From Octopus vulgaris (taxonomy: Eukaryota), in the NCBI GenBank assembly GCA_951406725.2, contig OX597817.1:124620001-124684000 (forward strand): 64,000 bases of DNA, written 5' to 3'. The translations under genes were made by a program, and so were the position numbers. Positions 12,469 to 46,549 of the stretch are shown piece by piece (the first letter of the stretch is position 1; the number at the start of each line of letters is the position of its first letter). Below the pieces are notes generated by a model, which worked only from the letters and a program-made list of their open reading frames with translations, ran no database searches and was not told the origin of the DNA.

Positions 12469-13902
12469 CTAGCAGTATCGCCCGGCGTTGCTCGGGTTTG
12501 TAAGGGAAATAACTATAAAGCATTTTTAGAGAGTTATAGCCAAAAAATAGCAAAAAAATGCATTAAAAATGGAAAAAAAATGATGGTAATTTTTTTTTAA
12601 ATCGTTGACTCATCGTAGACGCGCGCTAATACACAGACGGACTCGATATGAATCACGACTATAAGATACCCGAATTTGGTTAAACTGCACCGCAAAATGT
12701 GGGAGTAGTTAGGAATCTAAATCGTAGGAGACAGACACTCACACAACTTCACTTTTATATATATAGATATATATATGGTCTTATGCTATATGCGCACATA
12801 TATGTGCGTGCGCGAACGTGTGCGTGCGCCTGCGCAAAAGTGTGACTGCGCATGCGCGAACGTGTGCGTGCGCATGCGCGAACGTGTGACTGTGCATGCG
12901 CGAACGTGTGACTGCGCATGCGCGAAAGTGTGATTGCGCATGCGCGAACGTGTGCGTGAGCATGCGCCAACGTGTGACTCCGCATGCGCGAACGTGTGCG
13001 TGCGAATGCGCGAACGTGTGAATGCGCATGCGCGAAAGTGTGACTGCGCATGCGCGAAAGTGTAACTGCGCATGCGCGAACGTGGGCGTGCGCATGCGCG
13101 AACGTGGGCGTGCGCATGCGCGAACGTGTGAAAACGCATACGCGAACGTGTGAATGCGCCTGCGCGAACGTGTGCGTGCGCATGCGCGAACGTGTGACTG
13201 CGCATGCGTGAAAGTGTGACTGCGCATGCGCGAAAGGGTGACTGCGCATGCGCGAACGTGTGCGTGCGCATGCGCGAACATGTGAATGCGCATGCGCGAA
13301 CGTGTGCGTGCGCATGCGCGAACATGTGAATGCACATGCGCGAACGTGTGACTGCGCATGCGCGAAAGTGTGACTGCACATGCGCGAAAGGGTGACTGCG
13401 CATGCGCGAAAGGGTGACTGCGCATGCGCGAAAGTGTAACTGCGCATGCGCGAACGTGTGCGTGCGCGTGCGCGAACATGTGACTGCGCATGCGCGAACG
13501 TGTGCGTACGCTTGCGCGAACGTGTGACTGCGCATGCGCGAACGTGTGCGTGCGCATGCGCCTACGTGTGACTGCGCATACGCGAACGTGTGCGTGTCAC
13601 ACTTTACGAGGGAGGGAAGAAGGGGGAGAAGCAACACAGGTGCAGGTGTGAGCATGGACGCCAACTACGCCGCCATCGACACACGAAAAAATATGCGTTA
13701 AAATGGAAAAAAAATTATGTTAAATTATTTTTAAAATCGTAGACTCATTGTAGACGCGCGCTAATACCCAGACGGGCTCGATATGAATCACGACTATAAG
13801 ATACCCGAATTTGGTTAAACTGCACCGCAAAATGTGGGAGTAGTTAGGAATCTAAATCGTAGGAGACAGACACTCACACAACTTCACTTTTATATATATA
13901 GA
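12469..13902 (-). mobile_element. composite non-autonomous Helitron with two 5' ends (12767, 13902) and one 3' end
   Basis: minus strand A|TCtatatatataaaagtgaag at both 5' ends; 3' hairpin cccgagcaacgccggg followed by CTAG|T at 12469; 12560-12767 is duplicated at 13695-13902. Confidence 0.8.
12800..13596. repeat. 22-bp CpG-rich minisatellite, ~36 units (consensus tgcgcatgcgcgaacgtgtgac)
   Basis: direct tandem repetition; explains the three overlapping repetitive ORFs. Confidence 0.97.
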
Positions 13903-32659: not shown

Positions 32660-34010
32660 TCATCATCATCATCGCCGCCGTCGTTTAACGTCCGCTTTTC
32701 ACGCTGGTATGTGTTGGACGATTTGACTGCGGACTGGCAAGCAACAATGCTGCATTGTAGCTTGCCAGTCTGCAGTCAAATTCATAGTCAAATTCATAGT
32801 CAAACTTAGCCAGATCAGATTGGAGCCAGGCTCCAATCTGATCTGGCTAAGTTTCTACAGTTGGATGCCCTCCCTAATGCCAAGCATTCTGAGAGTGTAG
32901 TGGATGCTTTTTATGTGCCACCAGCATGAGGGCCAATCAGGCAATACTGACATTGACCACACTTGAATGGTGCTTTGTATGTGCCACCAGCATGGGGCCA
33001 GTCAGCCAGCACTGGTAACGACCACACTCAGCCACCACTGGCAACGATCACGCTTGAATGGTGCTTATTACATTCTGCCGGCACAGGTACCAATCAAGTA
33101 GTATTGTCATCAGCCATGACAATGACTTCACTTGACTACCTGAAGGGATTTGTGATTCATCTGCCTCCCTACTTATTAAGACTTTGGTTTTTGCTAGATT
33201 GACTCTAAGGCCCTTCGATTCTAGGCCTTGCTTCCAGACTTGAAACTTCTCCTCTAGTTTTGATAGTGACTTAGCTATTAGAGCAAGGTCATCAGCATAG
33301 GGCAGCTCCCAGGGGCATCCTGTCTTGAATTCCTCTGTTATTGCCTGGAGGACTATGATGAATAAAAGGGGGCTAAGGATTGATTGTTGGTGGACCCCTA
33401 CCCCTACCTGGAATTCTTCACTATACTCATTGCCAACCCTCACCTTACTGACAGTATCCCTGTACATGGCTTGCACAGGTCTCACTAACCATTCGCCTAT
33501 CCCTAGTTTCTGCATTGACCACCAGATAAGGGATTGGGAGGACCCTGTCAAAGACTTTCTCCAAGACAATGAAAGCCAAGTACAGAGATTTATTTTTGGC
33601 AAGGTATTTCTCCTGTAGCTGTCTTACCAGTGGTTCTTTTCCCTGGCACAAACCAAAACTGCATCTCATCTAGACTGACTCTCTCCCTAATTAGTTGGGC
33701 TATGACCCACTCCGTGACTTTCTTTACCTGATCCAACAACTTGATACCTCTGTAATTATTCATATCTAATGCATCACTTTTATTTTTATAGCAGCTGACT
33801 ATAGTGTTACTACACCAGTCATTGGGTATGACTCCTTCATATATTACCTGATCGACTATATGGGTGACTAGATTATAGTCAACACTGCCAGATATTTTAA
33901 GCATCTCTGCAGTGATTCCTGATGTCTTCATATTTGTCTTCATACTTTATCTACCAAGGTACTGTCAATTTGGATAGCTGGTCCTTCTGTTGGGTCGACA
34001 TTTGACAGAC
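32660..34010 (-). mobile_element. 5'-truncated RTE-clade LINE: RT pseudogene (33135-34010) plus 3' tail
   Basis: ORFs give IPNDW..YKNKSDALDMNNYRGIKLL, QFWFVPGK, LYLAFIVLEKVFDRV, VGVHQQSILSPLLF, YADDLAL, GLRVNLAKTKVL; frameshifted; ends in ggacgttaaac..(gat)n. Confidence 0.95.
32721..32854. repeat. two adjacent 1-nt-loop hairpins (30 bp and 26 bp) separated by a tandem 12-mer
   Basis: 32721-32781 (2 mismatches) and 32802-32854 (perfect: aaacttagccagatcagattggagcc a ggctccaatctgatctggctaagttt). Confidence 0.95.
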
Positions 34011-42237: not shown

Positions 42238-42649
42238 TAAGGGTAGAAATTGATATTTATCAATTAAGACCAGTGGTCTAGCATTTGAAAAAAATAAAAA
42301 ACAGAAAGTTTGATGTAGCACAAACGTGACACTACCATTCTTATCATTACTGAATCTCTTTCTATATGAAAATCACACATTTTGCTTTCTTTCTAAACCA
42401 CTACTCCAAACAAAATATGACACAACTACTCCAAACAAAATATGACACAACTACTCCATTTTGATATTCATTTTTTTTACATTTTCTTTCTTGGTAGGCA
42501 TTAATGTGTTTGCAGAGGAAGAATTTTAGATATTTCCTAAAAAAATGTTATACAAATTTCCATGTGAACTGGTAGACAGTTGTACATAAAGTTATTAGTT
42601 CCAGTAAACGAGGAAGCTATACATATAAATTTACTCTTATATAAACATA

Positions 42650-42671
42650 AATATATATATATATGTATGTA

Positions 42672-42750
<79 letters not shown>

Positions 42751-42769
42751 TTATCTATCTATCTATCTC

Positions 42770-42822
<53 letters not shown>

Positions 42823-42837
42823 TTTTATGCATACATA

Positions 42838-42869
<32 letters not shown>

Positions 42870-43025
42870 TGTATATATATATGTTCCCAACTTTGACACT
42901 CCATAAATCCAAAATTTTGGATATATATATATGTGTGTGTGGGTGTGTGTGTGTACGTATGTATATATATATATATATGTGTGTGTATGTATATATATAT
43001 CTATATCTATCTATATATATATAGT
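42650..43025. repeat. compound (TCTA)n/(TA)n/(CA)n microsatellite
   Basis: read directly. Confidence 0.95.
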
Positions 43026-43159
43026 CTATCACATTATACTTTTGATGCATGCATAATTATTGCTAACTGAACCATAAAAAGAAAGACATAGAAATTCACA
43101 CTTTCCTGCGAACACCTCCGAGTGCATTTCAGCTCTAGGAGCTTGTCTCTATTTTGCTT

Positions 43160-43791
43160 CAAAATTATAAACAACTTATAAATAAGGGCAAAAGAAAAAA
43201 AAATTCCTATACCAAATGTGCTGGGAAATAGACTTTAAATCGTCAGTAACCACATATAATTCATCACTAAAAGTTTTCACCTTAAAAGGTATCTTTTAAT
43301 ATGCTGGCCACTGATAAAATTTTTTGAAAATTTTATCCTATATTAGATGCAAATTTAATACCATTCACATCTGGGCAGTCTCTTACTTAATGGGAATTTT
43401 CACTCTGATCACGTGTGTCTTGAGGTGTGCTGCAAAATTTCTATTTGGATATATTTAGGGTACTTAAGTGTACCCATGGCTTTGCATATGCTTGTTCCAT
43501 GTGTGCAAGTAAGTATTTCATTTATTTCTTAATGTATTTATCACTGATGATGAGAAAATTATTTATGAATCAACTCAGAAATTGGGACCGATTTGGTGAT
43601 AATAGAATTTTTTATAAATTTCTGACAGCTTCCTTCGAGACACGTGTTTTTAGTGATGAATTATATGTGTTTCTTGACAATTTAAAGTTTATTTTTTGGC
43701 ATATTTGGCATAAGAATTTTTTCTTTTGCCCTTATTTATAAGTTGTTTATAATTTTCACCTTAAAAGGTATTTTTTAATATACTGGCCACT
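43160..43791 (+). mobile_element. hammerhead-containing monomer, subfamily 1 (479-bp period, 43274-43752, restarting at 43753) with an inverted 5' fragment (43160-43273)
   Basis: ttttcaccttaaaaggtat.ttttaatat.ctggccact at 43274 and again at 43753; 43160-43273 is the reverse complement of ~43646-43756. Confidence 0.8.
43538..43599 (+). ncRNA. type I hammerhead ribozyme HHR1
   Basis: ttatca CTGATGA tgag[19 nt]ctca GAAA ttgg-ga-ccga TT tggtga. Confidence 0.75.
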
Positions 43792-43836
43792 ATATAAGTT
43801 ATATATATATATATATATATATATATACAAATATAT

Positions 43837-44333
43837 AACTTATAAATAAGGGCAAATGAAAAAATTTCCAATGCCAAATATGACGAAATTGGACACCAAT
43901 GTGTCCAATTTGGCATATTTGGCATTGGAAATTTTTTCATTTCCATTACCATATAATTTTTCACAATACGCACGATACTCGAAAAAGGTCGACAGAAATT
44001 TCTAAAAAATTCCATTATTACCATATTGGACCGATTTCAGGGTTAGCTCATAAGAGCCCTCCCTTCGTCAGTGATAAATGTGGCAAAAGAAATAAATGAG
44101 ATACTTACTCATATCCATGGAAGAAGCAAACACTAAGTCATGAGCACATTTAAGTACCTCCAAATATATCCAAAATAGAAATTCTCCAGCCCACTCGAGA
44201 CACGTGCGATGTGAACTGAGGCTCTCACAGAGTGAGAGAGTCCGGAAGTGAACACTATTAAATTTATATCTAATGTAGGATAAAATTTTTTAGAAAAACC
44301 TTTAAAGGTTAAATTTATAAACAACTTATAAAT
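43837..44333 (-). mobile_element. hammerhead-containing monomer, subfamily 2 (486-bp period)
   Basis: aacttataaat at 43837 and 44323; reverse complement is colinear with, but diverged from, 43274-43752. Confidence 0.8.
44018..44077 (-). ncRNA. type I hammerhead ribozyme HHR2
   Basis: minus strand ttatca CTGACGA aggg-ag-ggctc-ttat-gagct-aa-ccct GAAA tcggtccaa TA tggtaa. Confidence 0.8.
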
Positions 44334-44368
44334 GAGTAAGTATCTCATTTATTTCTTTGCCACATTTA

Positions 44369-44547
44369 TCTTTCTTGGTAGGCATTAATGTGTTTGCAGA
44401 GGAAGAATTTTAGATATTTCCTAAAAAATGTTATACAAATTTCCATGTGAACTAGTAGACAGTTGTACATAAAGTTATTTAGTTCCAGTAAATGAGGAAG
44501 CTATACATATAAATTTATTCTTATATAAACATAAATATATATATATA
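44369..44547 (+). repeat. near-identical copy of upstream DNA 42485-42660
   Basis: tctttcttggtaggcattaatgtgtttgcagaggaagaattttag...tataaacataaatatat at both sites. Confidence 0.92.
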
Positions 44548-44648
44548 AGTATTTATAAGTTGTTTATAAATTTAACCTTTAAAGCTATTTTTTAATATGC
44601 TGGCCATTGATAACATTTTTTTTCAGAAAGAATTTTATCCTACATTAA

Positions 44649-44706
<58 letters not shown>

Positions 44707-44784
44707 TCAGAGAGAGAGAAAGTGAAGAGTGTGAGTTTATAAAGCTTGAAGTTGCTGGTAATTTTCTTGTCAAATTGTTTAAAT

Positions 44785-45170
44785 AAAGGTCTCTTGGCTC
44801 TCCAGTATATTTACCCAAACGTTACAACATACTTGAACCCAGTGCACCCATGCTTTTCTATCTCACTGAAGGTGTATTCACTCACGGTAGCTTCTTATTC
44901 ATTGGTGAGTTCTACCAGTAGGTATCTGGGGTGTCTATGTGAATGAAAATGGGTCCCAATATTGCCAACATATTTGTTGGATCAGAAATCGTCAGTAACC
45001 ACATATAATTCATCACTAAAAGTTTTCACCTTAAAAGGTATCTTTTATATAGCTGCTACACTGATGATTGTATCATCACCTGTGAACAACTGATTAACTT
45101 CCTCAGTTACTTCAGTTCATTTCACCCCATTCTTCGATTCCCCTGTGTCATTTCTGAATCCTCTGACTCC
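44785..45170 (+). pseudogene. Penelope-like element reverse transcriptase relic (motifs B' to C), interrupted at 44988-45047
   Basis: KGLLALQY / EPSAPMLFYLTEGVFTHGSFLFIGEFYQ*VSGVSM*MKMGPNIANIFVG (cf. FxFxGxxYxQxxGxAMGTxMGPxxANLFVG), then CYTDDCI..EQLINFLSYFSSFHPILRF..ISE (cf. RYIDD...FVNSFHPxLKFT). Confidence 0.88.
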
Positions 45171-45430
45171 TTTAACTGACTCAACTGCTCTCTCACCTCA
45201 GCCACGTTCTTCAAACCCATTGATACTTACTTCTCTTTTGACTTTTCTTCCCCCAACCCATCTACACCAAAGGCACAATCTCTTACTACCAGTTTCTCTG
45301 ACTCTGCCTTCTGTGCATCCATGACCAAGTTTTTGAGACATATGTGTGTGTGCATCTATACATGTATGTATGTATATATATATGTATGTGTTAGTATATA
45401 TATGTCTCTCTCTCTCTCTCCCTCTCTCTC

Positions 45431-45471
<41 letters not shown>

Positions 45472-45898
45472 TCATCATCATTATTTAACATCCATATTAC
45501 AAGCAGTCATAGGTTATTTATATATGCATGTATGTATATACACTGAAAGCCAAACACTCACACATGCTCAACCCACTTACATCTCACACATTCAGATATA
45601 AATTACATACACACACATATAGATATATCTATAAATACAGACACACACACACACAGTCTTTAGACTAAACAGTAGTTGCTTTAGACTTGGTTTGTTTTAG
45701 TGTGATCTTGATGTGTTGAAAGGGAAAAAACATTCTCTCATACATCATTTATTTTACTGCCTAACATGGCAGGCAACCTGGGATCTGATCTCACTTAATC
45801 TTGTTAATACATGCAACTAAATGACTATGAGCTTATGCTGCCTTCATATTTTTCAATATAAATAATTATAAATCAAACAAGTGAACATACAACCTATA

Positions 45899-46255
45899 GG
45901 TTAAATTTATAAACAACTTATAAATGAGTAAGTATCTCATTTATTTCTTTGCCACATTTATCACTGACGAAGGGAGGATTCTCACGAACTAACCCTGAAA
46001 TCGGTCCGATATGGTAATAATGGAATTTTTTAGAAATTTCTGTCGACCTTTTACGAGTAGCGTGCGTATTGTGAAAAATTATATGGTTATGGACAATGTG
46101 TCCAATTTCGGCATATTTGACATTGGAAATTTTTTCGTTTGCCCTTATTTATAAGTTGTTTATAAATTTAACCTTTAAAGCTATTTTTTAATATGCTGAC
46201 CATTGATAAAGTCCCAATAGTTTTAATTCTAGAAAATTTTATCCTACATTAAATA
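45899..46255 (+). mobile_element. partial subfamily 2 monomer; HHR3 bracketed by a perfect 27-bp inverted repeat (45899-45925 / 46147-46173)
   Basis: ggttaaatttataaacaacttataaat ... atttataagttgtttataaatttaacc. Confidence 0.85.
45958..46017 (+). ncRNA. type I hammerhead ribozyme HHR3
   Basis: ttatca CTGACGA aggg[18 nt]ccct GAAA tcgg-t-ccga TA tggtaa; quasi-palindromic stem III. Confidence 0.85.
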
Positions 46256-46338
46256 TAGAAAACAAGGAAACATACTAAACGCATATAAATGTTAAAAAAG
46301 AAAGGAAAAAGTGGAGGTAAAAAACGACATTCATTTTT

Positions 46339-46549
46339 AATTGTTTAAATAAAGGTCTCTTGGCTCTCCAGTATATTTACCCAAACGTTTCAACATACTT
46401 GAACCCAGTGCACCCATGCTTTTCTGTCTCACTGAAGTTGTATTCACTCATGGTAGCTTCTTATTCATTGGTGAGTTCTACAAGTAAGGTATCTTACTAT
46501 GTGAATGAAAATGGGTCCCTATATTGCCAACATATTTGTTGGATCAGAA
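46339..46549 (+). pseudogene. second copy of the Penelope-like RT fragment
   Basis: colinear with 44774-44987. Confidence 0.85.

Follow-up and report, generated by a model that had tools for sequence, protein, structure and literature searches.

A dispersed hammerhead-bearing unit in the Octopus vulgaris genome is apparently an undescribed non-autonomous Penelope-like mini-element of the retrozyme kind

What copied the short hammerhead-bearing units that lie close together in one part of the Octopus vulgaris genome, and from what form of template? The window analyzed here is a stretch of 64,000 nucleotides (assembly GCA_951406725.2, contig OX597817.1, positions 124,620,001 to 124,684,000), and a first-pass annotation of its sequence took the units at 43160 to 46255 for a candidate retrozyme family of permuted, ~480-bp monomers copied by a Penelope reverse transcriptase. 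The units, their arms, and their motifs are as follows (window coordinates):

43161..43272, minus strand: inverted arm of unit 1, 5'-truncated, with its 3' end near the first start site (86.6% match to 43648-43756, and unit map)
43274..43800, plus strand: unit 1, of the older subfamily B, one 479-bp period plus ~45 nt of redundancy, running into (TA)n
43536..43601, plus strand: type I hammerhead motif of unit 1, an aged copy, with the predicted cut after 43593
43800..43837, no strand: (TA)n tract common to the 3' ends of units 1 and 2, the putative target site
43837..44336, minus strand: unit 2, of the younger subfamily A, 3' end at site A, which has lost an internal stretch by deletion and gained a fold-back insert (43854-43942)
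44016..44079, minus strand: hammerhead motif in unit 2, mismatched once in stem III and predicted to be cut between 44024 and 44023
44332..44655, plus strand: head-to-head partner arm of unit 2, 3' end at site B (93.9% match, and alignment)
44986..45065, plus strand: local duplicate of the unit 1 inversion junction at 43237-43315 (93.8%)
45895..45925, minus strand: inverted-arm remnant at unit 3, with the junction as in 44303-44370 (98.5% over 68 nt)
45924..46257, plus strand: unit 3, a 5'-truncated arm with its 3' end at site B, duplicate of the unit 2 partner arm
45956..46019, plus strand: hammerhead motif of unit 3, intact, predicted cut after 46011, with a palindromic stem III and a predicted dimer fold

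Unit 1 does return to its own start after 479 bp, as had been claimed (43274-43322 against 43753-43800, 90% by self-BLAST). For unit 2, a period of 486 bp on the minus strand had been given, and an 11-nt repeat is indeed found after 486 bp, but the figure is an accident of the internal deletion and the fold-back insert. The third, partial unit carries its motif intact but is not an independent copy. It has the inversion junction, the 3' end, and the downstream flank in common with the plus-strand arm 44332-44655, the duplication taking in the flank as well (46330-46486 matches 44764-44920); therefore, the window holds two insertions plus local duplications. In that arm, the hammerhead region has been swapped for a 211-bp copy (44347-44557) of 42466-42673, as found by self-BLAST and alignment. 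Short local duplications are seen across 42466-46549 (42466-42673 into 44347-44557, 43237-43315 into 44986-45065, and 44303-44987 versus 45895-46549), and their position around the insertions suggests template-switching rearrangement. None of the 43 window frames of at least 100 aa looks by eye like a Penelope open reading frame (ORF), in agreement with the annotation. Elsewhere, the window contains a GC-rich 22-bp minisatellite of 35.6 copies (12809-13592) and, on the minus strand at 33048-33946, an apparent LINE reverse transcriptase fragment, called by eye.

The unit is not single-copy. A 28-nt word from the hammerhead has 468 exact copies in the genome and a second word, downstream of the hammerhead, has 506, with none for either word when reversed as a control. 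DNA searches with units returned 3129 and 3020 first-look candidates, and a rough capture-recapture estimate (25/87) puts the arms of the younger subfamily at ~1,800. The copies are dispersed through the genome, truncated at the 5' end and fixed at the 3' end. Natural unit periods range from 473 to 511 bp, and the unit itself is non-coding and measures 497 nt with 32% GC; unit 1 belongs to the older subfamily, and its best relatives are 79-87% identical. In assembled contigs of four of 24 candidate sequencing runs (guessed to be RNA, or unlabelled), many unit variants occur in short pieces, from which neither strand nor circularity can be read.

Permuted breakpoints had been expected from a plot of copy ends. 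The ends were mapped in 135 distinct loci on contigs C1-C4, chosen by the two exact words, with the natural unit of locus L060 as the reference. This mapping leaves out 29 loci chosen by likeness to unit 2, and the samples used for ends and alleles are biased to young subfamily-A copies on these contigs. The 3' ends turned out to be fixed at two sites. Site A lies ~159 nt past the predicted cut (+140 to +165) and site B at ~+260, the two being ~105 nt apart, and together they account for the 3' ends of 195 of the 229 arms (98 at A and 97 at B, with 11 between and 23 shorter). Both sites read TATA and then an AATTT run, and (TA)n follows 187/229 arms, compared with 248/3470 (7%) random flank positions. 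The 5' ends are scattered, occurring at roughly the same rate throughout and without any stop at the unit junction, and arms extend as far as -662. The "permutation points" are in fact random 5' truncation combined with one of two fixed 3' start sites, and the unit ends are not permuted in a rolling-circle manner.

Use of the two sites is strongly paired. A head-to-head pair is present in 81 of the 135 loci, the partner arm being absent from the remainder. After 21 of the 83 pairs were left out due to a short or intermediate arm, 59 of the 62 scored pairs combined one arm ending at A with one ending at B (31 expected; p = 8e-15). Either arm of a pair may reach further in the 5' direction (32 versus 27). 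Among the first 100 of the 468 word places, there were 9 pairs head to head, 3 direct pairs, and no triples.

These ends bear directly on the form of the template. In a strict retrozyme, loci with two hammerheads would release a ~490-nt monomer that is ligated to a circle, on which a Penelope enzyme would prime at sites A and B and roll past the origin. This model has already been proposed (PMC4209133, PMC7229834), and read-through that does not fall at the unit junction, with arms to -662, is what it would produce. Two tandem hammerheads, from which a monomer could be released, are present in 4/135 loci (L057, L060, L085, and L088; L066 was set aside as two insertions), and the copies in the window have no such tandem. 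However, trimers were seen neither in the 135 loci of 3 kb nor among the first 100 of the 468 word places, and the head-to-tail arrays that had been foreseen are not supported. Moreover, the 5' ends do not pile up at the cut, with 0/92 arms within 3 nt of it and the 203 blocks likewise showing no excess there; some arms (6/92) cluster at +8 to +14, but this cluster was not prominent in the larger set. Cut-defined 5' ends were rejected on these counts, although two long arms (L082 and L101) appear by eye, post hoc and weakly, to begin at the upstream cut site and to run across the downstream cut. For what they are worth, these two arms would fit a trimmed linear RNA better than a circle. In Xenopus, 8/9 retrozyme dimers were uncleaved in vitro (10.64898/2026.07.22.740005). 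Taken with the structural evidence below, a strict retrozyme seems to us a possible but rather unlikely account.

A different reading takes the copies for truncated terminal repeats that belong to an autonomous Penelope element outside the sampled set. In its favor, autonomous elements have the identical end pattern, many Penelope families exist in this genome, and our searches score the best candidates only. However, the unit junction is crossed by 28 of the 229 arms (24 arms being at least 490 nt), and the unit is without homology to the sampled terminal repeats. Furthermore, a word close to the start of the unit gave 168 matches, and in the 30 of them that were examined, the sequence before the start was the unit's own end (24/30) or simply stopped (6/30), and a same-strand GIY-YIG end leading into the unit was found in 0/30. 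The copies are thus not bound to a Penelope-like ORF, as the pseudo-LTR of an ordinary element would be, and we regard this reading as improbable.

Alleles were compared at 26 diagnostic sites across all 164 loci. Tandem repeats within one insertion were discordant at 16/158 diagnostic alleles, where 34% was expected (19 pairs), and inverted repeats at 54/353, where 40% was expected (50 pairs); the two did not differ significantly (Fisher p 0.13). In 11 of the 50 inverted pairs, the arms differed at a quarter of the sites or more (e.g., 7/12 in L034 and 5/12 in L054). This sharing within insertions indicates that a single source sequence usually serves to rebuild the tandem, as it also would on a circle; some inverted arms likely had two sources. 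Spread at the DNA level, through satellite amplification, gene conversion, or fold-back self-priming with the hammerhead as a passenger, is in our estimation highly improbable, even though duplication and template switching are evident in the window and self-priming has been put forward for head-to-head Penelope repeats (PMC3846280). The differing alleles of arm pairs such as those of L034 and L054 would not be possible by fold-back and favor two separately primed cDNAs; likewise, either arm can be the longer one, and the copies are scattered, 5'-truncated, and 3'-fixed.

The annotation assigned a type I hammerhead to each unit. The motif is there in all three (CUGANGA, GAAA, UH, and stems I-III), but unit 2 has the stem III mismatch and unit 1, when modelled, folds away from the active shape. 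A motif scan of the window returned type I hammerheads at 43544 and 45964; that of unit 2 was missed because of its mismatch and was picked up only afterwards by a relaxed motif. Rfam models gave 0 hits to the window at the gathering score. All core residues are kept in 84 of the 102 copies found by the relaxed motif. Over 85 distinct copies, chosen without the hammerhead word except for second copies in two loci that had been picked by it, pairing of the hammerhead structure holds in 91.5% of cells, compared with 86.5% in shuffled copies and 26-43% with slid partners, the tested structure having been drawn from the same sequences on which it was scored. AU/GC swaps occur at four pairs, namely 55/17 of stem I, 49/28 of stem II, and both 50/23 and 59/19 of an extension hairpin, and stems I and II stay paired through compensatory changes between the two subfamilies. 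The number of pairs with a double change is not above that in shuffles (8 versus 6.9; 139 of 500 shuffles), and the covariation represents few events along one family tree.

In fold predictions, unit 3 cofolds with itself as an active-type dimeric hammerhead, which units 1 and 2 do not, and the cut-to-cut monomer has a good predicted fold as a circle (z -5.7). Both results, along with the compensatory changes that kept the hammerhead, would suit a strict retrozyme. Helices outside the hammerhead, however, are without double-sided covariation among 44 units, which speaks against it. A rod structure of the whole RNA was considered and rejected, since its long helix is conserved but without double-sided change. 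Self-cleavage of the hammerhead transcript is a prediction of these models.

Directly upstream of the hammerhead, a splice-donor-like GTAAGTAT and a pyrimidine tract are kept in both subfamilies (43495-43535 and 44085-44125 in the window), and no form of the unit spliced at these elements was seen. In D. virilis Penelope, an intron ends at the hammerhead of the element (PMC4209133). An intron over the octopus hammerhead was rejected as an explanation of a 444-back joint in the contigs of 3/4 runs, as the joint is not GT-AG and is present as a genomic deletion copy. This copy (L216, G000:C29:10233990) is missing 53 nt, including stem I of the hammerhead and part of its core, and its junction is the one also found in the contigs of 3/4 runs.

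Penelope-like frames were found in the flanks of unit copies. One of them is of a very young Neptune-type element with a period of 4271 bp, which carries an intact 775-aa ORF with reverse transcriptase (RT) and GIY-YIG domains, and 150/150 scored matches were 100% identical over the C-terminal 234 aa, many of them within a 775-aa frame. A Cys-rich linker lies ahead of the GIY-YIG domain, which is a mark of Neptune or Nematis (PMC8557442, PMC3846280), and the element has a minimal hammerhead variant with a CCGAAGA core. In 17/18 of its head-to-head insertions, a short and a long end meet (TA)n; in the remaining one, a 1-nt indel is present and the sequence continues toward the long site. The start sites are ~32 nt apart, versus ~105 nt in the hammerhead unit. 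The element lies at L247 and L248 (G000:C1:27839000-27848900 and C5:5978000-5987000), on C1 as three copies in tandem, and the 775-aa RT frame is overlapped there by a separate frame of ~430 codons upstream of it.

No terminal repeat homologous to the unit was found in 103 Penelope-bearing loci of Neptune-type and other families, which sample the families of this genome and do not exhaust them. The matches that this search returned were rejected as neighboring insertions of the unit and one 37-nt AT-rich chance match. Since terminal-repeat homology was absent from these loci, it is the shared insertion pattern, and that only, from which we infer a helper: an intact Penelope-like element likely supplies the enzyme that copies the unit.

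Other hammerhead-bearing sequences occur in the genome. A different unit in tandem at L018:500-1245, also with a 497-bp period and with its end in (TA)n, has a related copy in L257 and is probably a second non-autonomous family. Another hammerhead family lies head to head at L009:1000-1345, ending in (TA)n, with a weak match to the L257 copy, and more hammerhead-like motifs of other families are found in L017:700-1000, L020, L024, L258, L303, and L314.

We consider it very probable that the unit is a non-autonomous mini-element mobilized by a Penelope enzyme. In the cycle that we propose, a transcript would be made from a copy longer than one unit, and a Neptune-type RT-GIY-YIG protein would bind the unit RNA and nick both strands of (TA)n DNA. 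One nick would prime reverse transcription at site A (~+159) and the other at site B (~+260), with UAUA at both; each cDNA would end at random, and the two would be joined head to head. Penelope-like elements are known to begin reverse transcription from two internal sites, on both strands of AT-rich DNA (PMC11167929). Long cDNAs would continue seamlessly past the junction between units and restore a partial tandem, probably through strand transfer over the terminal overlap. The hammerhead that is copied was likely left uncut in the template, and upstream read-through would be trimmed by cleavage of a dimer.

Two considerations constrain the template: (i) every hammerhead-bearing copy spans the cut site, so the template must have been uncut or religated there, and (ii) truncation shortens the copies, so the tandem must be rebuilt in each cycle, either by strand transfer over the overlap or by rolling on a circle. 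We lean toward a linear, uncut RNA, which seems somewhat the likelier template, since no trimers were seen, two arms appear to begin at the upstream cut, and an Anolis Penelope-like element mainly used uncut RNA as its substrate in vitro (PMC11167929). The genomic data do not cleanly separate linear from circular templates; a circle would account just as well for the shared alleles and for a junction without a seam. That the unit is a true circular retrozyme, whose insertions record Penelope copying of circles by a dimeric enzyme acting on two (TA)n strands from two start sites, sometimes with two RNAs and rolling past the origin, appears to us unlikely. If true, it would bring the tail, the inverted arm, and the pseudo-LTR of Penelope elements under one account and identify what mobilizes animal retrozymes. 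With a 490-nt RNA, a young 775-aa protein, and a (TA)n target, the octopus offers a small system in which circular and linear templates could be compared in vitro.

The family is real and sizeable and apparently undescribed, and it is of a known kind, for which reason the surprise is moderate. Neither a description of it nor a count of the A+B rule was found in the literature searched, which lay outside subscription journals, Repbase, and Dfam. For giant squid, 235 hammerhead matches are listed without analysis in the part of PMC6962438 that concerns them. The taxa named in the text of a recent survey of animal retrozymes (10.64898/2026.07.22.740005) include no mollusc, and its family tables may bear on novelty.

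Like the animal non-LTR retrozymes (Cervera & de la Pena 2020, PMC7229834; Li, Clavereau & Pollet 2026, 10.64898/2026.07.22.740005), the octopus unit is non-coding, AT-rich, and self-tandem, with a type I hammerhead and a small palindromic stem III, and it occurs alongside Penelope-like elements, with monomers common. Its length falls within the 51-972 bp reported for animal families in the latter study, so the claim that its monomer exceeds those of typical animal retrozymes is weak, though invertebrate retrozymes measure 170-400 nt in the former. Unlike them, the octopus unit, known from its sequence, is mostly dispersed, truncated, and head to head, with rare dimers and no multimers seen. 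By sequence, then, it would be classed as an animal retrozyme, but it does not have the array pattern. What stands of the first-pass annotation is a non-coding, self-tandem, high-copy hammerhead unit with Penelope-type insertion marks; the permuted ends and arrays do not. In Xenopus, 24/57 retrozyme families match a known transposable element, mostly Penelope-like elements (10.64898/2026.07.22.740005), whereas no parent terminal repeat was found for the octopus unit.

The unit also resembles the non-autonomous Chlamys elements such as MRC1 (PMC8557442), which are non-coding and form pseudo-LTRs and head-to-tail insertions with a Penelope-like helper. Those elements, as described there, generally resemble their helper at the 3' end and belong to a clade without canonical hammerheads. 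With the minimal, palindromic-helix-III hammerheads of metazoan Penelope-like elements (PMC4209133), it shares a long helix II, a palindromic helix III, a predicted dimer, and an arrangement singly or in opposite-strand pairs 100-700 bp apart; it differs in that helix II is extended by a second covarying hairpin and that the motif lies within a self-tandem unit instead of following an ORF.

In insertion structure, the unit is like the endonuclease-bearing Penelope, Poseidon, and Neptune elements (PMC8557442, PMC3846280, PMC11167929), which have partial tandems, an inverted, 5'-truncated partner arm, an optional tail that only one of the arms carries, two internal sites behind the hammerhead at which copying starts, and an AT-rich target. 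The octopus unit differs from these in having no ORF and a tail of ~105 nt instead of 30-40 nt (PMC8557442), and its sites A and B both have TA microhomology to the target, unlike Poseidon of Anolis, which starts at non-homologous sites. That only one inverted repeat carries the tail has already been published (PMC8557442, PMC3846280), and the A+B rule puts numbers to this remark. Penelope mobilization of animal retrozymes has so far been argued from co-occurrence and terminal-repeat similarity (10.64898/2026.07.22.740005, PMC7229834); here, two elements of one genome, the non-coding hammerhead unit and a candidate helper that is intact, obey a near-strict insertion rule (59/62 and 17/18).
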